Counted from the first letter of the stretch, positions 1-52,763 are shown. The stretch: DNA of 64,000 nt from Planctomycetota bacterium (GCA_965223845.1 CBDCXR010000004.1:6912001-6976000), one strand, 5' to 3'. The notes: a model not told the origin generated them from the sequence alone. Program-made: numbers and translations.

Positions 1-1592
1 TTGCGCGTTACCAGGACGAGCTCCGTGCGGGGAGCGACGTCGAGGGAGCGATCGTTCGATCGCTCTCGACGACCGGCGCGGGAATCTTCACCGGCGGGGT
101 GACGACGGCCGGCGCGTTCTACACGGCGGTGCTCGTCGAGTTCAAAGGCCTCCGCGAGCTCGGCTTCGTCGCGGGGACGGGGGTCTTGATCTGCCTGGGC
201 ACCATGCTCGTTCTCCTGCCGGCGCTGATCGCGGCGACCGACCGCCGCCGCGCGCAGCGCCGCCGGCTCGAACCGGCGCGTCGGATCCGCGTCCCCGGGC
301 TCGTCGCGCTCCTCCGGTTTCGCTGGGGCGTGCTCGCAGTGCTCGCGCTCTTTACCGGTGTGGGAGCCTATTGGTTTCCCGGTGTCGCGTTCAACTTCAA
401 CTTGCTCGAGCTGCAGGCAGAGGGACTCGAGTCCGTGCGCTACGAGCTCCTCGTCGCGGAGAAGTCGAGTGCGTCGACGTGGCAGGCGGTCTACGTGGTC
501 GACAGCCTCGAGGAGGTCGACGACGTGATCGCGAAGCTAGGAGACGGCCGCGCGGCCGGCGTGATCGGCGCGGTCGAAAGCGTCCGCGATTCCGTCGCGC
601 GCGACCAGCCGGAGCGACGCGCCATCCTCGCGCCCGCGGCTCAGCTCGTCGAGTCTCTCCCCGAAGCCGAGCGGGCTCCCTTCGACCGGGAACTCCTCGC
701 CGAAGCGCTCGAGGCGCTCCTCGACCGACTCGACACCGGCCAGAGTCAACTCGCCCTCAGCACGGAGCCGGGCCGAGAGGAGAAGATCGCGACGCTCGAC
801 CGCTGGATCGGCGATCTCGAGTCGGTGATCGACGGACTCGAGAACGAGGAGACGCTCGCTCGCGTGCGCGCGTACGAGGAGTCGTGGCTGAACGAAGTCG
901 CCGAGCTTCGTCGCAGCGCCGTCCGCATCCTTCGTCCGCCCGAGCTCCGGCCGGACGACCTGCCGGCGGTCGTCCGCGATCGCTTCGTGTCGGAGTCGGG
1001 AAAGTTCGTCGTGTTCGCGTCGCCTCAGAAGGACATCTGGCGCGAAGACAATATGCTCGAGTTCGTTCAAGTTACCCGCGCGGTTCGCCCGGGCGTGACG
1101 GGAACACCGATCGAGGTCTACGAATCGACGAAGATCATGCGCGACGATTTCATTCGGGCCGCACTCTACTCGGCCGCGCTCGTCTTCGCGTTTCTTCTGT
1201 TCGATTTTCGTCACGTGGGCCACGCGCTGCTCGCGATGGTGCCGGTGGTGGTCGGGCTCGTCTGGCTCCTCGAGCTCATGCCGCACTTCGGTCTGTCGTT
1301 GAATCTCGCGAACTTTTTCGCGCTCCCCATCCTCATCGGCTGCGGCGTCGACGGCGGCGTGCACATGGTGCACCGCTACCGTGAGGCACCGGATCCTCGG
1401 GAAGTCGCGCGAACGGCGGCTTCCGCCGTCACGCTTTCCTTCATCACGACGATCGCGGGATTCGGCGCGCTTTCGATCGCGAGTCACCGCGGCGTCTCGA
1501 GCCTTGGTCTCGTGATGGCGCTCGGTTGCATCACCGTGCTCGTCGCAACCGTCGTGCTTCTTCCGGCGCTTCTCCCTTCGCGCCGTGCGTAG
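1..1592 (+). CDS. RND/MMPL-family lipid transporter (HpnN/BstA-like), 5' end outside the window
   Basis: The frame is open from position 3 (ARYQDELRAG...TGAGIFTGGVTTAGAF). It has many TM helices, a large periplasmic loop, the MMPL motif PILIGCGVDGGVHMVHRYRE, the HpnN-like FNFNLLELQAEGLESV and VTGTPIEVYES, and lies near shc. Confidence 0.85.
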   Translation, partial: ARYQDELRAGSDVEGAIVRSLSTTGAGIFTGGVTTAGAFYTAVLVEFKGLRELGFVAGTGVLICLGTMLVLLPALIAATDRRRAQRRRLEPARRIRVPGLVALLRFRWGVLAVLALFTGVGAYWFPGVAFNFNLLELQAEGLESVRYELLVAEKSSASTWQAVYVVDSLEEVDDVIAKLGDGRAAGVIGAVESVRDSVARDQPERRAILAPAAQLVESLPEAERAPFDRELLAEALEALLDRLDTGQSQLALSTEPGREEKIATLDRWIGDLESVIDGLENEETLARVRAYEESWLNEVAELRRSAVRILRPPELRPDDLPAVVRDRFVSESGKFVVFASPQKDIWREDNMLEFVQVTRAVRPGVTGTPIEVYESTKIMRDDFIRAALYSAALVFAFLLFDFRHVGHALLAMVPVVVGLVWLLELMPHFGLSLNLANFFALPILIGCGVDGGVHMVHRYREAPDPREVARTAASAVTLSFITTIAGFGALSIASHRGVSSLGLVMALGCITVLVATVVLLPALLPSRRA

Positions 1593-1793
1593 TGCGATTG
1601 GACGCCGCCGACCGACGCTCGGTGTGCGGCGGAATTCGCGCGTCTCTCTTCGTCGCTCTCCTCGCTCCCCGAGCGATCGGACGCGGGAGATCGTGACAAG
1701 ACCGGGGTGGGAAGAGGAACGGAGATGGAGCGCGCTCGAGGTAGACTGAGAGTTCCTTAGTTCCCCGCCGTCGACCCCGCCGAGAGGAGAGCT

Positions 1794-2915
1794 GTGTTGT
1801 CCCTGCGATCTCGTCGTCCCGCGGAAGGCTGCTTAGCCTCGCTCTCGTCTCGTCTCGCCGCGCCGATCCTCGCGCTAGCTTGTCTCTCGCCCTGGGCGGC
1901 CGCGCAAGACGAGAACGGTGACGCCAGCGCCTCCGCCTCGATCGACTCGCCGAACTGGGTCGTCGTTCAACCCGGCTACCCGGGTTCCACCGAAGAGGCC
2001 GCCGGCTTCATGGAGACGTTTTCCGAGTTCGTCGGAACCGCGGCCGAGCTTCCGCGCCTCCGGGGGAGCTATTACAACGTGCCGAAGCTCGCGCGCGAGG
2101 CGATCCGCCGCGGCGGGCCGGCCTTCGGCATCGTGAGCCTCGGGTTCTACCTCGAACGGCGTCGCGAGCTCGGGCTCACCGCTCTCCTCGAGGCCGAACC
2201 CGCAGATCGATTCTTCGCCGTGGCACCGGAGGGGGCGGTACCGAAGCCGGCAGAGCTCGCCGGCGCTGCGGTCGCGGGCGGACCGCTCTACGAGCCGCTC
2301 TTTCTCGAGCGCGTCGCGTTCGCCGAGAAGCTTCCGGTCGCCGAGTGGCGCGGCGAGCCGGTGCTTCGTACGACTCGCGCGCTCCGTCGACTCGTTCGCG
2401 GGCGGTACCGCGCCGTCGTCTTGACGGGACGTGAGCTCAGCGCGCTCCGCGGGGTCTACCGGGGGAAAAAACTGGAGAACATCGCGGTGTCGGACTACTA
2501 TCCACCCGCTTTGCTCGTTGTTTTCGGAACTTCCGCGCGACCGCCGGACGACGAGAACGCGCGCAAGAGCGGGCTCGGCGACGAGCCGGAGCCCGCGAGT
2601 GGAGAGACGGAGAATCGAGCGGGCGGTGGGAACGTGAAGAGCGGAGGCGCCGCAGCGAGCGGAGCATCCGAGAGGAGCACGACAGCCGATCCGGACGGGG
2701 ACGGCGGAGGCGGGACGCCTGCTGCGCGTTCGTCCGCGGAGAGGTTGTCGAAAGAGGAGACCGAGCGGGTCCGCGCGGCCTTTGCGGGCATGGCCGACGA
2801 TCCACGCGGTAGGGAGTTACTCCAGAAGATGGGAGCGCGCGGCTTTCGTCCGGTGCGCGCGGAGTGGCTGAAGTCCACGGAGAGGACCTTCGATGCCTAC
2901 GAGAAAAAGAAGTGA
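1794..2915 (+). CDS. Periplasmic substrate-binding protein, PhnD/phosphonate-binding-like fold (BstB-like)
   Basis: GAGGAG SD precedes the GTG start. It has a signal peptide (LALACLSPWAAA-Q), an N-terminal VVQPGYPGSTEEA...YY...AFGIVSLGFYL segment, and a C-terminal RVRAAFAGMADDPRGRELLQKMGARGF segment typical of PhnD-like SBPs. A ~70-aa disordered insert is present. Confidence 0.65.
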   Translation: MLSLRSRRPAEGCLASLSSRLAAPILALACLSPWAAAQDENGDASASASIDSPNWVVVQPGYPGSTEEAAGFMETFSEFVGTAAELPRLRGSYYNVPKLAREAIRRGGPAFGIVSLGFYLERRRELGLTALLEAEPADRFFAVAPEGAVPKPAELAGAAVAGGPLYEPLFLERVAFAEKLPVAEWRGEPVLRTTRALRRLVRGRYRAVVLTGRELSALRGVYRGKKLENIAVSDYYPPALLVVFGTSARPPDDENARKSGLGDEPEPASGETENRAGGGNVKSGGAAASGASERSTTADPDGDGGGGTPAARSSAERLSKEETERVRAAFAGMADDPRGRELLQKMGARGFRPVRAEWLKSTERTFDAYEKKK

Positions 2916-3735
2916 CGGGATCTGGGTGTGCGTTGCGGCGGGGTGGATGGTGTTGAGCGGTTGCCAGTTCGTCCAGGACGTCGCGCCGCCGATCGAGGAG
3001 GTCCTCGATCCCGGCCGACTCCAGTACGAGCAGACGGCGCTCGCGGGAACGAGCCTCGAGCGGCGCATGGAGGAGATCGAGCGGTCCTACGCCGAGCCAC
3101 GCAGCCCGGAGAAGGTCGAGTACTCGCTCGAGACGTGCAGCTTCTCGATCTCGCCGGAGAACGACTATGCGGCGCTCCACTGTGGCGCTCGCGCCTGTGT
3201 GTGGCTCGCGGAGAACGCGACGTCACGCGCGGCAAAGGAGCGTTGGGCGCTGAAGGGCGTCTCCTGGGGGAAGGCTGCCGTCGACAAAGCTCAGACGCAG
3301 GCCGAATCGTACTACTACTTGGGTCGGAGTCTCGCGCTCCTCCTCGAAGCGCGCGGAATGAACTCGAAGCGAAACGTCCGGGACGCGCGCGGTCACCTCA
3401 GCATGGCGCGGAACCTCAAGCCCGACCTCGACCACTGCGGGCCGGATCGGTATCTCGGTCGACTCATCATCCGGACGCGGGAGTACCCGACGCTCCAGGC
3501 CGGATCCGTCGCGGAAGGCATCAACCGGCTCGAGCGCGCGGCGCGGGAGTGCCCGACCTACGGGGAGAATCTCGTCGACCTCGCGGAGGGTTTGATCGCG
3601 ATCGAGGACTTCGAGCGGGCGCACCAGGTTCTCGATGCGCTGCAGGAGCTTCCGAGCCCTCCCGGGCATACGGCGGATCACCAGGCTTGGCTCGTCCGGG
3701 CATCCGAGCTGCGGATCGAGCTCCCGGGTTTGTGA
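2893..3735 (+). CDS. TPR lipoprotein resembling the TRAP-T/TatT component family (BstC-like)
   Basis: Lipobox VLSG-C, TPR-like helices (AESYYYLGRSLALL; GINRLERAARECPTYGENLVDLAE) and the TatT-like PDLDHCGPDRYLG motif. It overlaps the upstream stop, which suggests translational coupling. Confidence 0.65.
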   Translation: MPTRKRSDGIWVCVAAGWMVLSGCQFVQDVAPPIEEVLDPGRLQYEQTALAGTSLERRMEEIERSYAEPRSPEKVEYSLETCSFSISPENDYAALHCGARACVWLAENATSRAAKERWALKGVSWGKAAVDKAQTQAESYYYLGRSLALLLEARGMNSKRNVRDARGHLSMARNLKPDLDHCGPDRYLGRLIIRTREYPTLQAGSVAEGINRLERAARECPTYGENLVDLAEGLIAIEDFERAHQVLDALQELPSPPGHTADHQAWLVRASELRIELPGL

Positions 3736-3843
3736 TCTCTTCGCCGCCGTTCCCGATCAGCTTCACCTCGAGATCGCGTACTTGATCGAGGAGCCGTTCG
3801 ACGGCGAGCGTAGGTCTTCGCGTTCTCCCAAGAGGGAGTCCGC

Positions 3844-3976
3844 CACGAAGGACAGAAAGGAAGACGAGGGACTCTGAGCGTAGCTCCAGGCGGCGAGATC
3901 GATCTTCTATCTCGAGCTCTCTACCTCAATTCCCCTCGTCTTCCTTTTCCTGCGTGTCCTTCGCGCTCTTCGTGTG
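3844..3976. repeat. Inverted-repeat REP/MITE-like element (CACGAAG family), copy 1
   Basis: AAAGGAAGACGAGGG (3856-3870) is the reverse complement of CCCTCGTCTTCCTTT (3933-3947). CCTTCGCGCTCTTCGTGTG (3958-3976) is identical to 24233-24251. It lies between convergent genes. Confidence 0.6.
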
Positions 3977-4513
3977 CATCTCTTCATCCGAAAGCGCCGC
4001 CCCCACCTCGACCGCACTCGCGAGAACCCGGTCCGCGTGATCGAATAGCCGATCGACAGTCTCGAGCGCCTCGAGGCCCTCGCGCGAACAAATCGCGCGG
4101 AGCGAACGGATGCGCCGGAGATCGAACCAGCGGCGGCCGATCGCGATCGCGATGAAGATCACGGCGCCGGTCGCCACGCTCGCGGTGAGCCACGTCGCTG
4201 CCGACACCGTAGCCGGGTCGATCACGACCGGGCGGCCCCACGTGATCGCGATCGCGAGTGCCGCTGCGAGAGCGATCCCCATTCCGAGGACTTCCCGCAC
4301 CGTGAGCGCGTGGGCGTCGGCGAGTCGCCGCTCGAACACCTCGAGTCCACGATCGATGCGAACTCGGATCGCGTCGACCTGATCCGTGACCGCGAGATCG
4401 ACGCTTCGTCGGTCGAGGTAGCGAGTGAGATCCGGCGCCAGCATCGCTCGCCGCGCCGCTCGGCCGAGCAGCGGACGCGGAGTCGTCGGACGCGATTCGC
4501 TTTCGTCGTTCAC
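3926..4513 (-). CDS. Hypothetical membrane protein (2 TM helices), downstream of shc and the hpnG-like gene
   Basis: Two hydrophobic segments (VLGMGIALAAALAIAITW; WLTASVATGAVIFIAIAIG). The start is uncertain: GTG 4513 or ATG 4444. The 4654 start in the track overlaps the upstream gene. Confidence 0.55.
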   Translation of the reverse strand: MNDESESRPTTPRPLLGRAARRAMLAPDLTRYLDRRSVDLAVTDQVDAIRVRIDRGLEVFERRLADAHALTVREVLGMGIALAAALAIAITWGRPVVIDPATVSAATWLTASVATGAVIFIAIAIGRRWFDLRRIRSLRAICSREGLEALETVDRLFDHADRVLASAVEVGAALSDEEMHTKSAKDTQEKEDEGN

Positions 4514-4586
4514 GAGCGAAGCGGTTCCTCGATGGACGGACTCGCCGAGGGCGAGGAGTTCGCCGCCGTCGGTCGATCGACGGGCA

Positions 4587-5384
4587 CTACGAGACGAGCG
4601 TCCGGACGAGCTCGGGAACGGTCGCGCCGAGCACGGCGGCCGCCCGCTGGGCACGGCGCGCGAGCGCCGCGATGGATCGCCATCGTTCGGGCCGCGCTCC
4701 GACCTCGACCATCGCTTGAATGGGCCGTGGTCGTCCTTCAGCGGTGAGGATCTTACCGAAATCGACCGGCAACTCGAAATCGCTTTCGTCGAGGATCACG
4801 CGCGCGCACACGGTCGGAACGGAGGCCGCCGTCATCGCCGCGAGAAGCGCGGCGGACTCCATCTCGACCGCGTCGCCACCGAACGAGCGATGGAGCGTGG
4901 CCTTCTCCGCGACGTCGTTGACGACCGAGTCGGTCGAGAGCAGACGACCGTAGCGAGCGACTCCGCGCCCGACTAGCTCGTCGAGGAGCTCGCGGTGGTG
5001 AGCCGAGAGCTCCCAATTTTCGCCTGCGAATCGGAGTGGACCGCGCTCCGACGTACGCGTTGCGAGTGCCGTGGTCGTCTCCGCGATGATGACGTCCTCG
5101 CAGCGCCAAGCCGGAGACAGTCCGCCGGCGAAGCCGGTAGCGAGTGCGACGCGCGGCCGAAACTGAGCGAGAAAGAGGGAGGCGCGCTGGCCGGCGAGTT
5201 CGCCGCCGATTCCCGTCCGGCAGAGAGCGACGCGCGCACCGGCGAGCTCACCGATCGTGTACTTCAGGCCGTCGCGCTTGTGAGAGCTCCGGCGTGCGAG
5301 GGCCGGGACGAGCGGTCGAAGTTCCTCGCGAAGAGCAACGAAGACGACGCAGTCGACGCGGTCCGCCGCGTTCGTGCTCGTCAT
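4587..5384 (-). CDS. hpnG: Nucleoside phosphorylase/MTA-SAH nucleosidase family protein, HpnG-like (adenosylhopane nucleosidase)
   Basis: Motifs VFVALREE, RTGIGG, TGFAGGL, AVEMESAA and RVILD. It begins 12 bp after the shc stop, the usual shc-hpnG synteny. Confidence 0.75.
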   Translation of the reverse strand: MTSTNAADRVDCVVFVALREELRPLVPALARRSSHKRDGLKYTIGELAGARVALCRTGIGGELAGQRASLFLAQFRPRVALATGFAGGLSPAWRCEDVIIAETTTALATRTSERGPLRFAGENWELSAHHRELLDELVGRGVARYGRLLSTDSVVNDVAEKATLHRSFGGDAVEMESAALLAAMTAASVPTVCARVILDESDFELPVDFGKILTAEGRPRPIQAMVEVGARPERWRSIAALARRAQRAAAVLGATVPELVRTLVS

Positions 5385-5396
5385 CGCGCGTCGCCG

Positions 5397-7616
5397 TTAC
5401 GGGGCGGGGCTACGAGCCGCACGACGCTTCGGGAGCGCAACGGTCTTCCCTGGGACGCCGCGAAACGTCTTTCCGGTGCACGCGTTTTTGTAGTACCCGA
5501 GCGCGAAGAGGGGAAACGTCACTCGGTAGTAGTGGTACCGAAGGTAGTAGACGTCCGGAAACCCGGTGCCGGTGAAGTGAGGCTCGTCCCAGGTTCCGTC
5601 CTCATTCTGCGAATCGAGGAGAAAGGCGATGCCGCGCTCGACCTCTGGCGATTCGATCTCGCCGGCCGCGATGAGGCCCATGACGGCCCACGCGGTCTGG
5701 GATGCGGTCGGTTCTCCCTTCCCCTTGAGCGCTGCATCCTTGTAGGAGTCGCAGGATTCACCCCAGCCGCCACTCGGCTGCTGCGTCGATTTCAGCCAGG
5801 ACACCGCGCGCCGGATCGGCGCGGATTTCGGATCGGTCCCGACCGCCATGAGACCCTTCAGCGTCTGCCACGTGCCGTAGACGTAATTGACTCCCCACCG
5901 CGCGTACCACGAGCCATCGTCTTCCTGCTCCTCGAGTAGAAAGGTCACGCCGCGCTCGATCGACGTCCGAACCTCGGGTTCGTCGTGGAGGTGTGGGAAG
6001 CGCCCGAGCATCTCGAGGACGCGACCGGTGATGTCGGCACAGGCCGGATCGAGCATCGCGTTGTGGTCGGCGTAGGGGACGTGATTGAACACTTGATGGT
6101 CGATGTCCGCATCGAACGCGGCCCAGCCGCCGTTCGTGCACTGCATGCGGACGACCCAGTGTACGGCGCGCGAGATCGTCTCGCCGAGCCCGTCGACGGC
6201 GCGAGGATCGCACCGATCGAGCGCGAGAACGACGGCGGCGGTGTCGTCGATATCGGGATAGAACTCGTTCCGAAACTGAAACGGCCAACCGCTTGTCTCC
6301 GCGTCGCGAACGCGGAGCTGCCAATCGCCGGGCTTGCGAACTTCCTTCGTGAGGAGCCAGCGCGTCGCTTCGGCAACTTCGGGCGCGGATGGCGAGCAGC
6401 CCGCTTCGACGAGCGCGTTCAAGATCAACGCCGTGTCCCAAACCGGCGAGAGACACGGCTGGAGACGCGTCGCGCCGTCTTCCTCGACTTCGAGCTCGCG
6501 CACCTTCTCGAGGTTCTTCACGATCGCGGGGTGGTCGACGTCGTGCCCGAGCGACTGGAGCGCTAGCACGCTGTTGACCATCGACGGGAAGATTCCCCCG
6601 AGGCCGTCGGAGTCCTCGGATCGCTTGACGACCCAGTCCTCGGCCTTCTTGAGTGCGATGCTGCGGAGCGGCTTGAGCGGAGTCTTCTCGATGAGTCGCA
6701 GGATGCGGTCGGTGAGCGTAAAGAAGTTGCGCCACGAGAGAAGATTGGGATCGAGCTGGAAGCGCCCGCGGATGCCGTTCCCGCGTTTCTTCCCGTTGCC
6801 GTTGCCGTTCCCGTTTCGTTTTCCGTTCGCTGGGCTCTTCGACGCGGGCTCGTTCTCGTCCCCGCCGCGGAAGATCTCCTCGAGCGTGATCTCTGGATGC
6901 ACCTTCCCTTGCGGCTTCTTCGCGTAGAGGATCGAGAGCGGAATGAGAATCGCGCGCGACCAATACGAAATCTCGTACACGTTGAAGTAGAAGAAGCGCG
7001 GGAGGAGGATGATCTCGGGGGGGATGGCGGGAATCTCGTCCCAATCGAATTGATTGAGGAACGAGAGGTAGATCTTTGTGTAGCTATTCGCCTGCTCGAC
7101 TCCGCCCATCCCGAGGATGGCCTCGCGCGCTCGCAGGAGGCGCTCGTCGTCCGGGGAGAACCCGGCGAGCTTGAGCGCGAAGTATGCCTTCACCGACGCG
7201 CTGATTTCGTCCGGTCCGCCGTGGTAGAGATTCCACCCGCCCGACGGGCTCTGTTCGCGCAGGATGTGCCGAGCGAGACTCTGAATCTTCTCGTGGTGAG
7301 CATCCGCGTCGAGGAAGGAGAGAAAGAGGATGTAGTCCGAACCGACGGTCGTGTCTCCCTCGAGCTCCCCGATCCAGTAGCCCCCCTCGTTCGGCCGAAC
7401 GCGAGTTCGCCCCTCCGCCACCTCGATCGCCGAGGGCCAACGGAGCTGCGACGGGTGGTAGGTGTCACCCGGGACGAACGCCGCGCGGAAAAACCGCAGA
7501 GTCCGATCGATCGCGCCGTCGACGCGCGCGAGATCGCGGCGCGCGACCGCCTGCGGACTCCGCTCGGACTCGGCGAGATCAGCGTTCGACAAGTTCTGCG
7601 ACAATGGAGGGCTCAA
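5397..7616 (-). CDS. shc: Squalene-hopene cyclase
   Basis: Catalytic DXDD motif (YPDIDDTA), which distinguishes SHC from oxidosqualene cyclase (DCTA). QW repeats (QSPSGGW, QCTNGGW, QEDDGSW, QQPSGGW, QNEDGTW), SPVWDTA, ASQTAW, GTGFP. Confidence 0.96.
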   Translation of the reverse strand: MSPPLSQNLSNADLAESERSPQAVARRDLARVDGAIDRTLRFFRAAFVPGDTYHPSQLRWPSAIEVAEGRTRVRPNEGGYWIGELEGDTTVGSDYILFLSFLDADAHHEKIQSLARHILREQSPSGGWNLYHGGPDEISASVKAYFALKLAGFSPDDERLLRAREAILGMGGVEQANSYTKIYLSFLNQFDWDEIPAIPPEIILLPRFFYFNVYEISYWSRAILIPLSILYAKKPQGKVHPEITLEEIFRGGDENEPASKSPANGKRNGNGNGNGKKRGNGIRGRFQLDPNLLSWRNFFTLTDRILRLIEKTPLKPLRSIALKKAEDWVVKRSEDSDGLGGIFPSMVNSVLALQSLGHDVDHPAIVKNLEKVRELEVEEDGATRLQPCLSPVWDTALILNALVEAGCSPSAPEVAEATRWLLTKEVRKPGDWQLRVRDAETSGWPFQFRNEFYPDIDDTAAVVLALDRCDPRAVDGLGETISRAVHWVVRMQCTNGGWAAFDADIDHQVFNHVPYADHNAMLDPACADITGRVLEMLGRFPHLHDEPEVRTSIERGVTFLLEEQEDDGSWYARWGVNYVYGTWQTLKGLMAVGTDPKSAPIRRAVSWLKSTQQPSGGWGESCDSYKDAALKGKGEPTASQTAWAVMGLIAAGEIESPEVERGIAFLLDSQNEDGTWDEPHFTGTGFPDVYYLRYHYYRVTFPLFALGYYKNACTGKTFRGVPGKTVALPKRRAARSPAP

Positions 7617-8078
7617 CGAGAGTGTTTCGCTCGGTTCTCGCAGCGCGCGAGTTCACTGGAGCACTGCCGGTGCGTGGGTATGCGGATGCGGCGATCTTTG
7701 ATAGTCTCGGACTCGCGAGCCGTTCCGAACCAGCGGGCGGGCACCGCCCCCGACTTCGCCGCGTCCGTACGTGAGTGACGATCGGACTTCCGATGGTATC
7801 GGCTGGCGAAGCGTGAATCGCTCGCGCGGACCCGGGATCCCATCGCGTCAGGTCGCAACCGATCGTCCCAACCGACGTATCGCCGCGCCCGCGGCGTCGA
7901 TGCTGATCGAACCACCGCAGTGCCCGCCGCGAGATACGCTCGTTGCAGTTACGAACGTCACGAATACGAAGCTGTGCGAATCAGACCGGGTCGATTCGGG
8001 CGGTATCTTTACGGGCCGTGCTCTCTAACGAGACGTGCTTCGCGGTCGGCTCTACAAACGAACGCGACCCCTTCTGAG

Positions 8079-9587
8079 ATGTGGCCAGAGTGTACCAGAG
8101 GCCCCTGGGTTTTCCAGGTCAATTCGCACCGCCGAGCGGAGCCCGGAGCGCGCGTCGGAAACCGTGCCGCGACGGTTCCGATCCTCGTGATCGGGGTGGC
8201 CTCGCTGCTCGCGCCGGGCGCCTTCGCGGGCGATGAAAACGCGCTGGTTTATCGGAACTGGGGTGCGCTCGATGTGTACGTCGATCCCGCTCCCGGTCGC
8301 GTCGCAATTCTCCGCAGCGGAGAGCCGCTTCTCGCCGAGCGGGCCGGCCGGCGAGGGACATCGTTCGCCGCGCTCACCGCCTCCGGTTGGCTCGCGTTTT
8401 CTCGCGTCGACTCCGTTCGAGATCGAGCCGGCGCGGACGGAAGGCGCGGACTTACGGTCGCGTTCGTCCGGCGGCGCGGGATCGGTGCGGAGCTCCAGCT
8501 CGATTGGGATCCGCGCCAGCCGGCGGTCGTTCGCTGGCGTTGGCGTGCTCACGGCGGAGTGGTGCGGGGGCTTCGGAACGATTTCGTTACGCTCTCGGGT
8601 GAGCAGTTTCAGGGCGACATCTCATCGCGGGTGATCGCCGGTCCCGAGATCGCGGCGCCGCGCGATGCGCTCGAGACCGCGACGATCCTTTCGTCCCGCG
8701 GTCTCGCGGCTCGAGTGAGCGCACGCGACGGCGCGAACGTGCGCGCGTTCCGGCCGGATCCGGACGCGTTCCGCATCCAATCTTCGGGACCGCGTCTCGA
8801 CCTCGTGATCGCCGGGGGGGAGCCGCGGTCCACGCTCGCGGCCGTTCGGTCGGATCGCGTCGCGGCTTCGCCGGCGGTCGAGGGAAGCGTCGTCCTCGGC
8901 GACGTCGCTTCGGATCTCGCGGCGCGGTTGGAGGAGCGCGGCTGGTCGTTCGAAGCGAATCCCGCCCGGCTCCGCGCGCACCTTGCCGCACCGCCGCCGG
9001 AGGATTGGTCCGGTCTCGGCCGGGCGGTCGCGAGGGCGAGGCGAGGCTCGTTCCGCGGCGATCCCGCGTGGCTCTGGGTCGACGCGCGAGCCAACGCTGC
9101 CCTTCGCGCGCGCGCGCTTCACCTCGCGGCGCTCCAGCCCGTGTTCGCGCTCGACGCTCGGGTGGTCGAGAACGCACTCGCTCAGAACGCGCGCGCCGGC
9201 GAGCTCGCCCGCAACCTCGAAGCCGCTGTCGAGACATCGCGCGCCGTGCGCTCACTCGTTCGCGCCCTCGCGGCTGACCCGACGGAGCGACAGCTCCCCG
9301 TGTGGCGCCCCGTCGCCGTCGAGTTTCCCGAGGACGCGCGCTCCTGGGAAGCGGACGCGTGGCTCCTCGGCCCCGACGTCTTCGTCGTTGCCGCGCTCGA
9401 GCGCGGCAACGATCAGCGCATCGTGCACTTTCCGCCGGTCGACTGGATCTCCGTCACGGACGGAGCGCTCCGCCGAGGCGGCGGCAGTCAACTGGTGAAC
9501 CTCGGGCCGACCGGCGTCGCGCTGTTCGAACGCTCGCGTGCGCGGTTCGGACTCCGCGACCGGTTGGCGCGACCCGCGGCGGAGTAG
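8079..9587 (+). CDS. Degenerate glycoside hydrolase family 31-like secreted protein
   Basis: Signal-like ILVIGVASLLAPGAFA. The C-terminus PVWRPVAVEFPED...WLLGPDVFVV...VHFPPVDW...GGG...VALFER matches the GH31 C-terminal region. The catalytic barrel is short and its motifs are not recognisable. The start is uncertain. Confidence 0.6.
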   Translation: MWPECTRGPWVFQVNSHRRAEPGARVGNRAATVPILVIGVASLLAPGAFAGDENALVYRNWGALDVYVDPAPGRVAILRSGEPLLAERAGRRGTSFAALTASGWLAFSRVDSVRDRAGADGRRGLTVAFVRRRGIGAELQLDWDPRQPAVVRWRWRAHGGVVRGLRNDFVTLSGEQFQGDISSRVIAGPEIAAPRDALETATILSSRGLAARVSARDGANVRAFRPDPDAFRIQSSGPRLDLVIAGGEPRSTLAAVRSDRVAASPAVEGSVVLGDVASDLAARLEERGWSFEANPARLRAHLAAPPPEDWSGLGRAVARARRGSFRGDPAWLWVDARANAALRARALHLAALQPVFALDARVVENALAQNARAGELARNLEAAVETSRAVRSLVRALAADPTERQLPVWRPVAVEFPEDARSWEADAWLLGPDVFVVAALERGNDQRIVHFPPVDWISVTDGALRRGGGSQLVNLGPTGVALFERSRARFGLRDRLARPAAE

Positions 9588-9603
9588 ACGTCGACGCGAG
9601 CTC

Positions 9604-11637
9604 TTAGCGCACCGGCGCGTCGTCTTCTGCGTCACAGAGAACGGGACCTGCCGCCGTTCGAAGCGGTTTTCCCGCGTAGCTGACGCGACCACCTTGGACC
9701 GTGAGCGGCGCCTTCTCGAACTCACTTTTCGAGAGCTTCTTCTTCGGCGCGCTCTCGATGCCCTCGACCCCGACCTCGACGCCGATCTCCGCGTCTCCCG
9801 GGTCGACCGGCACGACGGCGCCGTCCTTGCGATCGCTCGCGAGGATCATGCCGCGACTCTCGATGCCGCGAAGCTTCGCCGGCTTCAGGTTGGCGAGGAC
9901 GACCACCATTCGGTCCTGCAGATCCGATGCGGGGAGATACTCACGGAGACCGGCACAGATCGAGCGCGGCTCGTCCTCGCCGAGATCGACCGTCATCGCG
10001 TAGAGGCTATCGGCATCCGGGTGCTCGTTCACCTCGACGATGCGGCCGACTCGGAGCGCGAGCTTCGCGAACGGATCGACGGGGGCGGGGGGACCCTTCT
10101 TCGGCTTGTGTGATTCGTCCATGCGTTTTTCTTTCGTCTTCGGTTCCTTCGCCGTCTCGCGTCGCGGGAAGAGCGGGGGTTTCTCTTCAACGCGGTAGGT
10201 CGACGGTTCGCGTCTCCGTTCACTGAGCGTGCCGAGCGTGAACCCGAGGGAAGAGCCGATGGCTGCGGCGGTCTTCGGCATCGCCGGAGAAAGGAGATGG
10301 GACACCGTTCGCAGCGCTTCGAAGCACTCGGCGAGAACGGCGGTGAACTCGCCGGGATCCTTGAGCTTCCACGGTTCGGTCTCGTTGAGGTACGCGTTGC
10401 TTCGCTTGATGTACGACCAGAGACGCTCCATCGCGCGGTGATGCTCACGGCCGTCGACGAGCGCGAAGAACTCTTCGATGAGCTCCTCGTCTCCGAGCAC
10501 TTCCGGTCGACCAGGAGTCGCGATCTCGCCGCCGAGTCGCGTCGCGATGAGCTTCACCACGCGGAGAACGAGATTCCCGAGCTCGTTGGCGAGCTCGGCG
10601 TGGTAGCGGTCTTCGAGCTCCGCGCGCGAGAACTTGCCGTCGTGGCCGCTCGCGAAGCTCCGGAGAAAGTAGAAACGGAGCACTTCGACCCCGTACTCGC
10701 CGACGATCTCAAGCGGATCGACGACGTTCCCGAGGTGCTTCGCCATCTTTCGGCCGTCTTCGTCGAGGATGAAGCCGTGCACGTAGACTTGTGCGGGAAG
10801 CTCTTCGCCGGCCGAGAGCAACATTGCCGGCCAGATCACGCTGTGGAACCAGTTGATGTCCTTCCCGATGACGTGGCAGCTCGCCGGCCAGAACGTCGCC
10901 GAGAGGTCTTCGGGCGCGTGGAGGGCGGAGAGATAATTCTCGAGCGCGTCGAACCAGACGTAGAGCACGTGTCCCGGATCGTCGGGAACGGGGATGCCCC
11001 AGTCGAACGTCGAGCGGGATATCGACAGGTCGCGTACGTCTTCACGAAGACGTGCGACGATTTCGTTGCGGCGCTCCCGCGGGTAGACGAACGCCGGATT
11101 CGCCTCGATGTGCCGGAGGATCGCCTCGCGGTACTTGCTGAGACGGAAGAAATAAGACTCTTCCTTGACCGGCGTCGTCGGCCGCTCGTGGATCGGGCAG
11201 CGGCCGTCGACGAGCTCCGACGCGGTGTAGAACTTCTCGCAGGATATGCAGTAATCGCCCTCGTAGAATCCCTTGTACACGTCGCCGGCGTCGCGGATTC
11301 GCTCGTAAAACCGCTGGCAGAATTCGCGGTGTCGGGGTTCCGAGGTGCGGACGAAATCGTCGTACGAGATGTCGAGGAGCGCGTAGAGTTCGCGAAACGC
11401 GGTGGCTTTCTCGTCGACGAACTCCTGCGGTGACAGACCGCCCTGCTCGGCGGCTTCCTGAATCTTCTGGCCGTGCTCATCGAGTCCGATGAGAAAGCGC
11501 GTCGGCACGCCGCGAAGGCGACTCGCACGCGCGTAAAAATCGGCGACCACCTTCTCGTACGCGTGCCCCATATGGGGGACACTGTTCGGATAATCGATCG
11601 CTGTCGTGATGTAGAAGGGCGCCGGATTCTCGTTCAT
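9604..11637 (-). CDS. metG: Methionyl-tRNA synthetase with C-terminal tRNA-binding (Trbp111/EMAP-like) domain
   Basis: YITTAIDYPN, HIGH-type HMGH, GLDEHGQKI, one Zn knuckle (CISC...CPIH), LYVWFDAL, KMSKS-type KMAKH, and C-terminal LRVGRI...ANLKPAKLRGIESRGM. The likely start is ATG 11637, not 12303. Confidence 0.96.
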   Translation of the reverse strand: MNENPAPFYITTAIDYPNSVPHMGHAYEKVVADFYARASRLRGVPTRFLIGLDEHGQKIQEAAEQGGLSPQEFVDEKATAFRELYALLDISYDDFVRTSEPRHREFCQRFYERIRDAGDVYKGFYEGDYCISCEKFYTASELVDGRCPIHERPTTPVKEESYFFRLSKYREAILRHIEANPAFVYPRERRNEIVARLREDVRDLSISRSTFDWGIPVPDDPGHVLYVWFDALENYLSALHAPEDLSATFWPASCHVIGKDINWFHSVIWPAMLLSAGEELPAQVYVHGFILDEDGRKMAKHLGNVVDPLEIVGEYGVEVLRFYFLRSFASGHDGKFSRAELEDRYHAELANELGNLVLRVVKLIATRLGGEIATPGRPEVLGDEELIEEFFALVDGREHHRAMERLWSYIKRSNAYLNETEPWKLKDPGEFTAVLAECFEALRTVSHLLSPAMPKTAAAIGSSLGFTLGTLSERRREPSTYRVEEKPPLFPRRETAKEPKTKEKRMDESHKPKKGPPAPVDPFAKLALRVGRIVEVNEHPDADSLYAMTVDLGEDEPRSICAGLREYLPASDLQDRMVVVLANLKPAKLRGIESRGMILASDRKDGAVVPVDPGDAEIGVEVGVEGIESAPKKKLSKSEFEKAPLTVQGGRVSYAGKPLRTAAGPVLCDAEDDAPVR

Positions 11638-11673
11638 GGCGGACAGTATGACAGGTTCGACTTCGGGTTGGAA
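11638..11673 (-). promoter_or_regulatory. Candidate sigma70 promoter for a leaderless metG transcript
   Basis: Minus strand reads TTCCAA-17 bp-CATACT (with TG-n extended -10) followed by 7 nt and then the ATG. No SD sequence is present. Confidence 0.45.
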
Positions 11674-14600
11674 GCGGAGCGCGATCGCGGGTGCAGTGCT
11701 CGTCGTGCTCGCGCTTGTCGCGTGGCGAGCGATCGAACGCGGTGAAGATGTCGATCGAAACTCCGCGCAAACTCCAGACGATGCCGCTGCGATCGATGCG
11801 GGCGAACGTTCGACGGGGAGCGGTACGTCGTCCGACGGGGAGACGCCCGGAGAAGCATCCGCGAGCGGGCCGGCGAACGATCGAGTCGACGGGATCTCTC
11901 GGCTCGTCAGCGGCCGCGTCCTCGGGGAGGGCGCGCCGATTGCGGCCGCCGAGGTGTTGCTGATCGACTTCGAGTTCTCCGCGGAGCTCCTTCGTTTGTT
12001 CGACTCGATCGAGGAGGATCCGCGGCACGGCTCCATTCCAAACATCGAAGCGCTCATTCCTCGCCTTCGATCGATCGTCGCTCGCGCGCGTGAGACCGCA
12101 CCTCGCGCGAAGGCCGACGCCGACGGACGATTCGCGTTCTCCGCCGTCGAGCCGGGCGCGTACCGACTTCTCGCGCACCGCGCCGGCTGGCAGTTTCGCC
12201 TCGGTGACGGACTGCTCGTTCGGCGCGGAACCCCGGTCGAGCGCGATGTCGAGCTCGTTCGTGGGGCCACGATAGCGGGACGCGTCATCGCGGCCGGAAA
12301 CACACCGGTCGCGGGTCGCGTCGTTCGAGCCGAGATTTCCGCGGGTTCCTCGATGTACGGCTTCCTCGTCGAACAGTTCCGCTCGCTGTTCGACGGCGCG
12401 GCCTTTCGGGGTGATCTCGAGGCGACGACCGACGCCGAGGGTCGATTCGTCTTCGATACGCTCGCTCCGGGGCGCTACGACTTGCTGACCCGCGACCGCG
12501 GCGGAGTCATCGTGCGCGCGGGCGGCGTCGCGACGGGATCGAACGACGTTCTCCTCGCGGCCCGCGCTCCGGGCTCGGTCGAAGGTACGCTGCTCGATGA
12601 ACTCGATGCGCCGCTCGTCGGGATCGTCGTCGAACTCGCGCCGAGTCAAGGCACCGAAGGCCTCGGACCGTTCGGCGCCGACTTCGGCACACTGTTCGAG
12701 CGGGCCCGGGTCGCTCTCGAAGGAAGCTCCGTCCGCGTGAAGACGAATCGCGGCGGCGAGTTTCGCCTGGGTCCGCTTGCGCCGGGTTCGTATCGAATGA
12801 ACATCGAGTCGCCCGAGATCCGCACCGTGGACCGCCGCGTCGACGTCCCGAGTGGAGAGCCGGTGCGACTCGGAGTCCTTCGCGCCTCGCGGGGCGGTAC
12901 GATCCGCGGACGCGTTTCGTCCCCCGAAGGTGCGCCGATCGCCGGGGCCGCGGTGGTGAGTGTTCCGGAGAATTCCGCGTCCGAGTGGGCGGTGTTCTCC
13001 GAAGGCGAAGTCCGTCGAGCGACGACCGACGCGAACGGCGAGTTCATCCTCGCGGGGCTCGCCGGCGGTACTCAGCGGTTGCTCGTTCGCGCGCGAGGTC
13101 GGTATCCCTTTCGAATCGATGCCGACCCGGGCGCGACGCTGGACGACATCCGACTCGAGCCCGGGATCACGGTCTCGGGGCGCGTTCGTTCGGCCGCCAC
13201 GGACGGGCCGATCGCCGGGGCGCGCGTGCGCGGCGGAAACTCGAGCGTCGAGACCGACGGGGAGGGGCGGTTTCGTCTCGACGGCTTCGTCTCATGGTTC
13301 GCCTCCGACGTGGAGCTCGCCTCGAGTCCGGTCGAGGTGGTCGCTGCGGGAGCGAACGGAATCGATGACTCGGACCGCTGGTTCGTCAAGGTGTCGGCGA
13401 GAGGGTTCGAATCGACGATGGTGCACTTCGAAGCCCGCGCGTCGGGCGAGCTGGACATCGTTCTCTCCCCGTCGAGGTTCGTTCGCGGGCGGCTGCTCGC
13501 GCCGAGCGGTGAGCCGGTCTCGGGCGTTCCCGTACGGCTGGCTCGATCGCTCGATGAAGCAGAGGCGCTGTTCGACCTCGCGCTTCTCACCGAGCGCGTG
13601 ACTTTGAGCGGCGATGAAGGTCGTTTCCGAATCTCGACGGAAGGACTCGTCTCCTCGGCCTACCGCGTCCTCGCGGACCACCGAGAGTTCGCCCGCGCGG
13701 AGGAGCGGATCTACGTGCCGCTCGAGAACGACGAGGCAGAGCTCGAGCTCCGCTTTCGTCCCGGATCCATCGTCCGGGGTGTCGTTCGAGTCGGAGCGCA
13801 TCCCTACGCGGGCGCGAAAGTTGTTCTCGCGCGTATCAACAAGGAGGCGCGCGACGATCCGGCGGAGATCGTGACGCGGATGATGGGGTTCGCTCGCCAG
13901 GGACGCGTCGTGGTTTCGGGCGCCGAAGGGAAGTTCGAGATCCCGCGCGTCGGAGAGGGCGACTACGTGATCCGTGCGGATGCGTTCGACATCGGCGAGT
14001 CGCGCGAGCTGGAGGTGCGGGTGCATCCCGGTGAGGACAGCGAGGTCGAGCTCGTACTCACCCCCGGCGGCGAAATCGGCGGCGAAGTGGTCGATGACTC
14101 GGGCGCTCCGATCGAGGGGGCGACGATAAAGCTCTTTCGCGAGGAGAGCGTCGACCCGGAGGACGAACTCGACGTGTCGCGCGAGGAAGCGCTCGCTCAG
14201 CGCCTCACGTTCGGAGTTCCGGCGAAGACCACGACGACCGACCGAGCGGGAGTGTTTCTCTTCGAAGGTGTCCCCGCGGGGAGCTTCTCGCTCGTGGCCG
14301 GAAAGCCGAGCTACTCACGCGCGGTCGTCAACGGAACCGAGGCCGGCGATGAAGACGTCGAAATCATGCTCGCCGCGCTCGGTGGGATCGCGGGGCAAGT
14401 GCTCGCGCGGGATTCGGGTGACGCTTTGGGCGAGTTTCGCGTGCTCTACACCCGAACCGATCCGTCCCCTGAAGATCTCGCCGATTTGGTGGCGACGGAC
14501 AACTCGCTCGTCGGTGCGGTCGACGGCGGTTCCCTCGATGGGAGATTCGTCGTGCGCGGACTCTCGGCCGGCGACTACGAGATCGAAGTCCACGCACCTG

Positions 14601-15277
14601 GGTTCGTCTCGCAACAAAGGACGGTCTTCGTCGAGCCCGGACGCATCCACGAGGCTGATTTCGAGCTCGATCGCGCGGCGCGCGTCACCGGAACCGTGCT
14701 CGACAAGGTGACCGGTGCTCCCGTCTCGGGCGCGAGCGTCCATTACGCCGAGCAGGGAGACGGGCCGGTCTGGTCGTTTCCGCGGGCGGACGCCACCACG
14801 ACCGGCCCGGACGGTCGCTTCTCGCTGTGGGCGGACCCGAAATCGTTGCGGATCTTCGTCCACAGCTCGGCGTTTCTTCCGCTCGAAGTGACGGTCGAGC
14901 TGAGCGTGGCGACACCGCTCGAGCTTCGTCTCGAGCTCGATCCAGGGATCTCCGCCGCGGGGCTCGTGCGCGATGCGAACGGTCGTCCGTATGCGCACCG
15001 CCACCTCCTGATCATCGGTGAAGAGACGAAACGGAGTTCCTCGACGCTGAAGGCCGTGATCACCGACGAGAACGGAAAGTTCAGTGTCGGTGGACTCGTC
15101 CCGGGTTCCTACGTCCTCCGCGACCCACGCATGGGCGTCGAGCCGGGTGAAGTCCCCGAGTTCGAGCCGCCAACGGACCAGGAAGGGCTCGAATCGTTTT
15201 GGGCGCGGCGCGACATTCGGCTCGAGCTTCGCGAAAGTCGGAGTGACTGGGACTTGACGTTTCCTAGCGGGAGTTGA
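11648..15277 (+). CDS. Large membrane-anchored protein with tandem carboxypeptidase-regulatory-like (transthyretin-like) beta-sandwich repeats, paralog 1
   Basis: N-terminal TM (AIAGAVLVVLALVAW). About 11-12 repeats of the pattern I-x-GRV...G-x-PI-x-GA-x-V...TD-x-x-GRF-x-F-x-x-L-x-PG-x-Y. Start is ATG 11648 or 11636. Confidence 0.8.
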   Translation: MTGSTSGWKRSAIAGAVLVVLALVAWRAIERGEDVDRNSAQTPDDAAAIDAGERSTGSGTSSDGETPGEASASGPANDRVDGISRLVSGRVLGEGAPIAAAEVLLIDFEFSAELLRLFDSIEEDPRHGSIPNIEALIPRLRSIVARARETAPRAKADADGRFAFSAVEPGAYRLLAHRAGWQFRLGDGLLVRRGTPVERDVELVRGATIAGRVIAAGNTPVAGRVVRAEISAGSSMYGFLVEQFRSLFDGAAFRGDLEATTDAEGRFVFDTLAPGRYDLLTRDRGGVIVRAGGVATGSNDVLLAARAPGSVEGTLLDELDAPLVGIVVELAPSQGTEGLGPFGADFGTLFERARVALEGSSVRVKTNRGGEFRLGPLAPGSYRMNIESPEIRTVDRRVDVPSGEPVRLGVLRASRGGTIRGRVSSPEGAPIAGAAVVSVPENSASEWAVFSEGEVRRATTDANGEFILAGLAGGTQRLLVRARGRYPFRIDADPGATLDDIRLEPGITVSGRVRSAATDGPIAGARVRGGNSSVETDGEGRFRLDGFVSWFASDVELASSPVEVVAAGANGIDDSDRWFVKVSARGFESTMVHFEARASGELDIVLSPSRFVRGRLLAPSGEPVSGVPVRLARSLDEAEALFDLALLTERVTLSGDEGRFRISTEGLVSSAYRVLADHREFARAEERIYVPLENDEAELELRFRPGSIVRGVVRVGAHPYAGAKVVLARINKEARDDPAEIVTRMMGFARQGRVVVSGAEGKFEIPRVGEGDYVIRADAFDIGESRELEVRVHPGEDSEVELVLTPGGEIGGEVVDDSGAPIEGATIKLFREESVDPEDELDVSREEALAQRLTFGVPAKTTTTDRAGVFLFEGVPAGSFSLVAGKPSYSRAVVNGTEAGDEDVEIMLAALGGIAGQVLARDSGDALGEFRVLYTRTDPSPEDLADLVATDNSLVGAVDGGSLDGRFVVRGLSAGDYEIEVHAPGFVSQQRTVFVEPGRIHEADFELDRAARVTGTVLDKVTGAPVSGASVHYAEQGDGPVWSFPRADATTTGPDGRFSLWADPKSLRIFVHSSAFLPLEVTVELSVATPLELRLELDPGISAAGLVRDANGRPYAHRHLLIIGEETKRSSSTLKAVITDENGKFSVGGLVPGSYVLRDPRMGVEPGEVPEFEPPTDQEGLESFWARRDIRLELRESRSDWDLTFPSGS

Positions 15278-15342
15278 GGGAACGTCGGGAGGTCGTACGA
15301 CGTCGCGTCTGCGGCGTCTTCCACTGTCGTCGGAGAGTTGTC

Positions 15343-28163: not shown

Positions 28164-28490
28164 GACGGCCTTTCGACGCGGGGAAGTCTCCATCGTACCG
28201 GCGATTGTACGTCGGGCTGCGCCCTTGCGGCAGGGCCGGGGACGGAAGGGGCACCGGTGCGGTCTTTGTTCGCGTGAGAGACGACGCGTGCACCCCGCGA
28301 GGTCTCTCTACCAGTCGGGGGAGATTCCCGCCGGGTCGGCTCACCGGGTCGTGGTGGTTCTTCTCGATTTCCCGCCCCCGCCTCGACGGCGCGGTTGATC
28401 CGAGCGCCGTGTGTCGTCAGAGTGAGTCGTTCGCGGCTTGGCGGGCGCATTCGCTCGCGCGCAAACGGACCGGTGAATGAGGAGACCGAA

Positions 28491-37010: not shown

Positions 37011-37213
37011 GGTCGGAGCCTCGAGCCGGGGGACGAAACGATCGAGCCGGGGAACAGGACGCGAACGTCGGTCGCTTTCCCGGTCCTCCGGCCACTAGTG
37101 CGGAAAGCGGCCGCCGAACCGGTCACGGCTTCAGCGGATTTTTTCCGACTCGGCCGAGGGCCGATTGCCGACAATGAAGTTCGTTTCGGAGCACGACTGG
37201 GAGTCGAGAATCG

Positions 37214-46733: not shown

Positions 46734-46789
46734 ATCGGCTTCCTGACTGCGACCATCGTTCGGGCGCGCGGCCGTCGCTCGCGGGCGGC

Positions 46790-46818
46790 TTGAAGCGCGT
46801 CCGAGCCTGTCTTACAAT
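46790..46818 (+). promoter_or_regulatory. Sigma70-type promoter
   Basis: TTGAAG (46790-95), 17 bp spacer, TACAAT (46813-18), upstream of the gene at 46894. Confidence 0.65.
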
Positions 46819-52653: not shown

Positions 52654-52763
52654 CGGAACGAGATCGGAAACGAGCGAATCGTCCCGACTCGTTTTGCGGC
52701 GCCCGCCCGGGCGCGCGCGAGCTGCCCTCGACACGACGCCATCTGCGAAACGGACCGCCAAGA

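Follow-up and report, generated by a model that had tools for sequence, protein, structure and literature searches.

A conserved Bst-like gene trio with an HpnN-like pump is linked to hopanoid genes in a lineage of planctomycetes

A 64,000-nucleotide stretch of DNA from a Planctomycetota bacterium (GCA_965223845.1 CBDCXR010000004.1:6912001-6976000), called the window below, opens with three genes on one strand that form a real, conserved relative of the BstABC system, with an HpnN-like pump, and that are linked to hopanoid genes within a lineage of planctomycetes. The trio encodes an RND transporter, a secreted binding protein similar to BstB and a lipoprotein similar to BstC, and its association with hopanoid synthesis is carried by the homology of the parts, their export signals, the order of the genes and their linkage to shc, to an hpnG-like gene and, in two related loci, to hpnA. 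BstABC of Methylococcus capsulatus is described for sterols only in the available text of PMC10942540 and PMC11713862. For the passage of hopanoids over the periplasm and into the outer membrane, only the inner-membrane pump HpnN is characterised, and the further candidates HpnM, HpnS and HpnT are confined to Proteobacteria, according to the text available from PMC12324291. From the sequence comparisons given below, we put at roughly 0.55 the probability that the trio would act as a lipid shuttle across the envelope, built of three components in the manner of BstABC, with hopanoids as the most likely cargo.

The first 7.6 kb of the window consist of two convergent gene groups, the plus-strand trio facing a minus-strand group that contains the squalene-hopene cyclase (SHC) gene, shc. 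Five genes carry the argument, and all of them sit at the coordinates that the first-pass annotation of this DNA had given.

3..1592, plus strand: HpnN-like MMPL/RND inner-membrane transporter, C-terminal 529 aa; the 5' end lies beyond the window edge
1794..2915, plus strand: BstB-like periplasmic substrate-binding protein, 373 aa, with a signal peptide and a low-complexity insert at about aa 250-315
2893..3735, plus strand: BstC-like TPR lipoprotein, 280 aa, with lipobox LSGC and Cys24
4587..5384, minus strand: hpnG-like nucleosidase/phosphorylase (PNP_UDP_1), assigned by Pfam and NCBIfam
5397..7616, minus strand: squalene-hopene cyclase (shc), assigned by TIGR01507, DIDDTA and QW motifs

The genes for the BstB-like and BstC-like proteins overlap by 23 nt. 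The E-values of the gene assignments are far past chance. A BamA gene is also present in the window (44325-46811), and the organism is therefore a diderm.

The binding protein begins with a signal peptide, in which a hydrophobic core is followed by AAA/QD, and a signal peptide is found in nine orthologues as well. Its sole NCBIfam match is BstB (59 bits, E = 3.9e-16), and BstB is likewise the only or best NCBIfam match for seven of seven orthologues (60-85 bits), although the window protein and these orthologues all fail the 350-bit cut-off of the BstB equivalog model, NF045601. A sequence search of the PDB at E <=10 returned a single match, the BstB structure 7t1m (E = 1.1e-12). When a profile built from 30 family members was used instead, 7t1m was found at E = 1.8e-32 (116 bits), and chains of the ArrX/AioX/PtxB-like type at E = 0.04-0.5, through 40-50 C-terminal residues only; no PDB chain named PhnD appeared at E <=10 with this profile. 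True PhnD is thus not the better match, the comparison being 1.8e-32 for 7t1m against at least 0.04 for the ArrX/AioX/PtxB-like chains. Pfam family Phosphonate-bd reaches 26 bits against a cut-off of 27, and only over the C-terminal 43 aa. An identity as the binding protein of a PhnD-type ATP-binding cassette (ABC) phosphonate importer was considered and rejected, with Phosphonate-bd under its cut-off, no match to TIGR03431, and no adjacent genes for an ABC permease or ATPase. The low-complexity insert, rich in Gly, Ala, Asp, Glu and Ser, separates the main BstB-like match from the Phosphonate-bd match at the C-terminus; its length differs among orthologues, the proteins ranging from 284 to 401 aa.

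The lipoprotein carries its lipobox, LSGC, at Cys24, and all 11 sequences compared have this lipobox Cys. BstC is its sole NCBIfam match (55 bits, E = 7.4e-15) and the only or best match for seven of seven orthologues (44-70 bits), all of these scores, too, lying under a 350-bit equivalog cut-off (NF045602). In the PDB the top match is the BstC structure 7t1s (E = 1.5e-8), and a profile of 11 members finds 7t1s at E = 1.8e-20 and 76 bits in a single stretch of 141 residues. The same profile gives 30-32 bits to the TatT-type structures 8g52 and 8g53, the former being Es_TatT with palmitate (PMC11713862). Designed consensus-TPR proteins exceed or come near the score of 7t1s only by summing stretches of at most 18.5 bits each, all of them on one TPR unit (profile positions 218-273). 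Generic TPR or TatT proteins are therefore not the better match. The possibility that this is a TatT T-component of a TPR-associated (TPAT) or other tripartite ATP-independent periplasmic (TRAP) transporter was rejected on the same scores and on the lack of TRAP P, Q or M genes nearby. The family of the BstC-like protein is small, with 23 proteins at E <=1e-5, which were pre-labelled PF21033 (RMD1-3).

The RND fragment matches Pfam MMPL at 86 bits. Among NCBIfam models it scores 314 bits against HpnN model TIGR03480, 192 against a second HpnN model, NF052374, and 183 against BstA model NF045600. Eight of eight full-length orthologues show the same ranking, with 486-522 bits for TIGR03480, 304-344 for NF052374 and 250-317 for BstA. 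The curated cut-offs are 752, 1100 and 1400 bits, respectively, so the protein stays under all three, with HpnN as the top-scoring family. In the PDB, the orthologue from locus L006 (loci are introduced below) finds HpnN structures 6wu0 (181 bits) and 5khn (176 bits), followed by MmpL4 at 65 bits. Our placement of the transporter between HpnN and BstA is based on these hidden Markov model (HMM) scores and on the PDB ranking, by which it is nearer to HpnN than to BstA, and specifically HpnN-like, not generic. In a plasmid collection there were two weak matches to the RND protein, one of them L013 (Methylobacterium bullatum), without annotation, and no relative of the BstB-like protein.

The homology of the trio to BstA, BstB and BstC, as the first-pass annotation had proposed it, is thereby upheld: among solved structures, single-sequence and profile searches both put BstB and BstC first, and NCBIfam either ranks their models highest or gives no other match. 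By the same model scores, no member of the trio is an equivalog of BstA, BstB or BstC.

The cyclase was likewise called correctly as an SHC rather than an oxidosqualene cyclase (OSC). It scores 681 bits against TIGR01507, for which the cut-off is 431, and fails OSC model TIGR03463 with 271 bits against a cut-off of 851. It has DIDDTA at aa 455 and five QW motifs, and no VxDC; DxDDTA occurs in nine of nine orthologous cyclases. The neighbouring hpnG-like protein matches Pfam PNP_UDP_1 at 99 bits. For the window protein, HpnG model TIGR03468 (86.5 bits) scores about level with methylthioadenosine/S-adenosylhomocysteine (MTA/SAH) nucleosidase (87.2 bits); for three of three orthologues HpnG is the best NCBIfam match, at 116-123 bits, under the cut-off of 187.

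The first-pass annotation, while right about these five genes, overlooked a small conserved open reading frame (ORF) on the minus strand between them, here called orfX, next to which lies an inverted repeat.

3926..~4480, minus strand: orfX, about 170-185 aa; start codon uncertain, ORF open to 4654; conserved in related loci
3846-3870 / 3933-3963, no strand assigned: inverted repeat between the convergent operons, with a 15-nt perfect core and 22-nt arms at 77%, 62-74 nt apart

The product of orfX has the motif AP(E/D)L.R(Y/L)L..VDL..TD..(E/D)A..VR, followed by hydrophobic segments, and no Pfam or NCBIfam match. By tblastx and tblastn it is conserved in eight of the ten related loci that reach this position (L001, L002, L004 and L006-L010), and it was not detectable in L003 or L012. 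This conservation makes it a probable third member of the shc operon, in which it would follow the hpnG-like gene. One arm of the inverted repeat falls within the 3' end of orfX; the repeat (3846-3963) may be a terminator, perhaps a bidirectional one. A promoter and terminator scan of 1400-8000 found no canonical terminator or sigma-70 promoter, and an Rfam scan of 1-12500 found no Rfam family.

We scanned GTDB species genomes with two clade-specific peptide patterns and obtained 12 related loci (L001-L012), of which 11 are titled Planctomycetota, Planctomycetia or Planctomycetes and one 'uncultured bacterium'. In a collection clustered at 90%, the BstB-like protein has 40 relatives at E <=1e-3, and those that are named come from metagenome-assembled genomes (MAGs) of Planctomycetes. 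By tblastn and ORF mapping, the RND gene lies upstream of the gene for the BstB-like protein in every one of the 11 loci with sequence on that side (L004 begins with the latter gene), and the gene for a BstC-like protein follows in 11 of 11 that reach downstream (L011 ends inside the BstB-like gene). The three genes are all on one strand, in the window (3-3735) and in the related loci. The hpnG-like gene and shc are present and convergent on the trio in all ten loci that extend far enough, L005 and L011 ending earlier. The RND proteins of L006-L009 and L011 are 90-95% identical and that of L010 is about 71% identical to this group; the others and the window protein share 37-51%. Because RND identity outside the L006-L011 group is only 37-51%, about nine deep lineages keep the cluster.

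In two of the loci, hpnA lies directly upstream of the RND gene and on the same strand (L002:1299-2429 (+) and L012:1171-2394 (+)). These hpnA products score 433 and 416 bits, respectively, against TIGR03466 (cut-off 368); the model that scores next best for both is that of the sterol demethylase SdmB (cut-off 600), with 223 and 193 bits. The window itself begins within its RND gene, downstream of this position. No OSC, squalene epoxidase or sdmA gene was found among the window ORFs scanned or in the sequenced stretches of the 12 loci, and no OSC-type cyclase or sdm gene passes its cut-off in the window or the loci; the neighbours found there are shc, the hpnG-like gene and hpnA. Two suggestions of the first-pass annotation thus gain ground. 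It had linked the trio to shc, and the link recurs in 10 of 10 related loci that reach that far, with no OSC in the 12 loci within the DNA examined. It had also suggested an evolutionary link between HpnN and Bst systems, which gains support because the RND protein scores higher on HpnN than on BstA models and because hpnA, with SdmB as its second-best match, precedes the RND gene in two loci.

To compare binding sites, we took 43 cavity or ligand residues of BstB from PMC10942540 and bridged the numbering through P0097, a BstB-type representative, with a constant offset of +2 that was checked at five anchors. In the 30 family members, 33 of the 43 positions are at least 70% hydrophobic or small, and three fall within a deletion. 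The column of BstB Tyr120 contains Phe in 22 sequences, Ile in three, Leu in three, Val in one and Trp in one, with no Tyr among the 30, as compared to six Tyr among seven in the BstB clade. Cys254 of BstB is Leu in 28 of 30 members (Cys in 7/7 of the BstB clade), and Phe257 is Met in 29 of 30 (Phe in 7/7). Other switches relative to BstB are Gly221 to Leu (23/30), Ile217 to Tyr (28/30), Gln194 to Arg (26/30) and Gln195 to Asp or Glu (28/30). Residues of BstC were mapped by hand from a pairwise PDB alignment, with an offset of +14. The column of BstC Glu86, whose replacement weakens sterol binding (PMC10942540), holds seven Leu and one each of Glu, Ala, Gly and a gap among 11 sequences, the sole Glu being that of the window protein (Glu107). 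His83 is replaced by Trp in 10 of 11 and Arg132 by Asp or Glu in 10 of 11, while Tyr121 (11/11), Tyr122 (10/11), Asp160 (10/11), Arg166 (11/11) and Leu171 (11/11) are kept. Judged by these alignments, the residues that contact the sterol hydroxyl, Tyr120 in BstB and Glu86 in BstC, are not conserved across the family. The pattern fits a hydrophobic carrier pocket that would be retained and a polar-group site that would be altered.

The BstB-like family extends well past this lineage. Searched with the family profile, a set of 1.84 billion representatives yielded 626 proteins at E <=1e-3, 398 at 1e-10 and 79 at 1e-30; 45 score at least 195 bits, and a long tail of proteins of 270-300 aa scores 100-166 bits. 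BstB is the top NCBIfam match for 124 of 124 representatives scanned, of which P0097 alone exceeds the cut-off, at 408 bits, with another six at 256-286 bits. In a FastTree phylogeny of 147 rows, which left out fragments shorter than 230 aa and P0164, a single clade of 51 rows (SH-like support 100) takes in all ten shc-linked proteins, and seven BstB-type rows form a separate clade (support 100). Where members of the tail are named, they derive from MAGs of 'Deltaproteobacteria', Myxococcales/Myxococcota and Acidobacteria. P0164, a metagenome representative of 871 aa, joins a truncated HpnN/BstA-like RND protein in frame to a BstB-like part. We rejected a true RND-BstB fusion, the BstB-like part having kept a signal-peptide-like segment of its own, and read the sequence as adjacent genes merged by a frameshift or gene-calling error. 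P0164 is therefore probably a case of RND and BstB-like gene adjacency outside the planctomycete clade.

If the trio is a hopanoid shuttle, SHC would make C30 hopanoids at the inner membrane, and the hpnG-like enzyme would help to build the side chain of the extended (C35) forms. Powered by proton-motive force, the HpnN-like RND pump would draw the hopanoid out of the inner membrane and into the pump's own periplasmic domain, whence the secreted, bilobed BstB-like protein would ferry the lipid through the periplasm in its hydrophobic pocket. At the outer membrane, the lipid-anchored, all-helical BstC-like protein would take it over. We infer which way the lipid travels, that it passes from part to part, that the lipoprotein sits in the outer membrane and, from gene neighbourhood and homology, what the cargo is.

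Several observations weigh against hopanoids as the cargo. The gene ribBA, for DHBP (3,4-dihydroxy-2-butanone 4-phosphate) synthase/GTP cyclohydrolase II, which has no lipid link, adjoins the RND gene or hpnA in nine of the ten loci that reach upstream (L001, L002, L003, L006-L010 and L012); since it is equally syntenic, adjacency by itself is weak evidence in this lineage and may be inherited synteny. Further out, genes for methionyl-tRNA synthetase (MetRS), an M24 peptidase and BamA are found repeatedly as well, and in L002 three unrelated transporter genes, for a VTT-domain protein, Vut_1 and a sodium:solute symporter, stand between the RND and BstB-like genes. All 12 loci belong to one phylum and were found with clade-specific patterns, and the survey speaks for this clade only. 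None of the three proteins comes near any curated cut-off. The polar part of the BstB pocket is partly kept, with Asp or Glu at the position of Glu118 in 29 of 30 members and Thr, Ser or Asn at that of Asn192 in 30 of 30, which speaks against a complete change of the head-group site. Nor does the BstB or BstC fold by itself predict hopanoid binding, because the Bst proteins of M. capsulatus took sterols, not hopanoids, from a mixed extract (PMC10942540). Finally, the support comes from sequence, and the view taken of OSC genes covers the 64-kb window and the loci.

The synteny of ribBA in 9/10 loci, the recurrence of MetRS, M24 peptidase and BamA genes and the interrupted operon of L002 would all suit a trio that moves some other hydrophobic cargo (fatty acids, carotenoids, another isoprenoid or a phospholipid) and that stands beside shc only by inherited gene order. 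So would the differences from BstB and BstC in ligand-contacting residues, and the binding of fatty acids by the TatT relatives of BstC (PMC11713862). We nevertheless hold such a cargo to be unlikely: the RND protein is specifically HpnN-like; hpnA lies immediately upstream, in the same direction, in two deep lineages; the core of six genes is kept as a unit, whereas the distance to the MetRS, BamA and M24 genes varies widely among genomes; and the lipoprotein family profile gives 76 bits to BstC but 30-32 to TatT-type structures. There is also the case, which we judge improbable, of a true transporter of sterol or another oxidosqualene-derived triterpenoid, served by an OSC elsewhere in the genome, as in some planctomycetes. 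The only characterised BstB and BstC do bind sterols (PMC10942540, PMC11713862), the planctomycete Gemmata makes sterols (PMC6606645), and our view of the host is confined to 64 kb of a 7.87 Mb contig; but the window ORFs scanned and the loci are without an OSC, a squalene monooxygenase or sdmA, and their neighbouring genes are shc, the hpnG-like gene and hpnA. Moreover, the BstB-like and BstC-like window proteins reach 59 and 55 bits where the Bst equivalog cut-off is 350, the former belongs to a clade apart from BstB, and the 3-hydroxyl contacts Tyr120 and Glu86 are not conserved. The slimmest chance of all we give to the same machinery running inwards, for retrograde transport or for uptake of exogenous polycyclic lipids, given that the cell makes its own hopanoids through the adjacent shc and that neither the window nor the loci show genes of an ABC or TRAP importer next to the trio. 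HpnN, moreover, was reportedly found by Doughty et al. in 2011 to be needed for the localisation of hopanoids to the outer membrane. What would speak for inward movement is that PhnD-type binding proteins and TatT/TRAP partners classically import (PMC10942540, PMC11713862), and that the transport direction is not established even for BstABC.

An outward hopanoid shuttle of this composition would be close to BstABC of M. capsulatus (BstB 7T1M, BstC 7T1S) in several respects. The same three protein types are encoded in the same order on one strand, the signal peptide and the lipobox fit the same envelope layout, most pocket positions stay hydrophobic, and the locus is shared with a triterpenoid cyclase pathway. 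It differs in that scores here are far under the cut-offs (183-317 against 1400 bits for BstA, 59-85 against 350 for BstB, 44-70 against 350 for BstC), that the BstB-like proteins form a separate clade and the RND protein is nearer to HpnN, that Tyr120 and Glu86 are not kept, that shc, the hpnG-like gene and hpnA take the place of osc, sdmA and sdmB among the neighbours, and that the host is a member of Planctomycetota rather than Methylococcaceae. The reported BstB and BstC clusters comprise 16 and 13 sequences, mostly from Methylococcaceae, with Deltaproteobacteria also in the BstC set (PMC10942540, PMC11713862). HpnN, known from Burkholderia multivorans (5KHN/5KHS), comes first for the RND protein both in model scores and among solved structures, and shc/hpn genes adjoin the RND gene as well. 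The RND orthologues here, however, stop at 486-522 of 752 and 304-344 of 1100 bits, and they have BstB-like and BstC-like partners, whereas proteobacterial HpnN loci are not described with such partners in the available text of PMC12324291.

That source, a 2025 preprint by Lawrence et al., proposes HpnM (MlaC-like), HpnS (MlaA-like) and HpnT (a DUF2147 lipocalin) as hopanoid carriers, in Proteobacteria only (PMC12324291). They resemble the present proteins in their proposed job, that of a soluble periplasmic carrier and an outer-membrane lipoprotein working with HpnN, and in the logic of the proposal, which is microsynteny with shc and hpnN (PMC12324291). The folds are unrelated, PhnD-type bilobed and TPR/TatT-type here as opposed to MlaC, MlaA and lipocalin there, and no MlaC, MlaA or DUF2147 match was found among the window ORFs scanned. 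With PhnD, PtxB and AioX on the one hand and TatT on the other, the cluster shares superfamily folds (Phosphonate-bd at the C-terminus of the BstB-like protein, TPR/RMD1-3 on the BstC-like protein), but the profile matches are weak and no ABC or TRAP genes are adjacent. A term search of the available text of PMC12324291 gave no relevant mention of Bst, PhnD, TPR or TatT. We found no published description of a Bst-like, hopanoid-linked cluster of this kind in the literature searched, most subscription journals lying outside it; among the best-ranked matches listed (15 of 128), a Bst term and hopanoid occurred together only in three Bst papers.

Over the whole window, G+C is 64-70% in 2-kb intervals, and the part beyond the two gene groups contains several further features. 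The gene at 7920-9587 (+), divergent from shc, encodes a protein with a weak match to a GH31 C-terminal domain only; it has a counterpart at L002:13497-14789 (+) and is absent from the other loci. Two giant proteins of about 1220 and 1170 aa, with many CarboxypepD_reg/transthyretin-like repeats, are encoded at 11615-18774 (+). Several genes for extracytoplasmic function (ECF) sigma factors and Ser/Thr kinases lie within 20463-41528. Four large ORFs (738-1438 aa), at 24258-28307 (-), 34878-37094 (-), 48247-50739 (-) and 52200-56516 (+), have coding-type G+C at third codon positions (GC3) and no Pfam match at E <=1e-5.

A wider interpretation of the cluster is possible, although we would sooner bet against it than for it. 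The trio and its neighbours might be a complete, unrecognised trans-envelope pathway of hopanoid delivery in Planctomycetota, a third solution beside the proposed HpnM/HpnS and HpnT routes. The operon of hpnA and the genes for the HpnN-like RND, BstB-like and BstC-like proteins would then be the hopanoid counterpart of methanotroph sdmB, bstA, bstB and bstC, the sterol and hopanoid machines would share one cargo-switching ancestor, and the BstB-like superfamily (398 representatives at E <=1e-10) would consist of general carriers of polycyclic lipids.

At the strength that we give to a hopanoid cargo, the cluster would supply concrete, clonable candidates for the missing steps of hopanoid transport in another diderm phylum, and it would extend the BstB and BstC folds beyond sterols. 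The substitutions Tyr120 to Phe, Cys254 to Leu, Phe257 to Met, Glu86 to Leu and Arg132 to Asp/Glu may serve as hypotheses for selectivity between sterols and hopanoids. Through the parallels between HpnA and SdmB, between HpnN and BstA, and between the respective B and C proteins, the cluster would also link hopanoid and sterol transport in evolution, in a way that is open to test.

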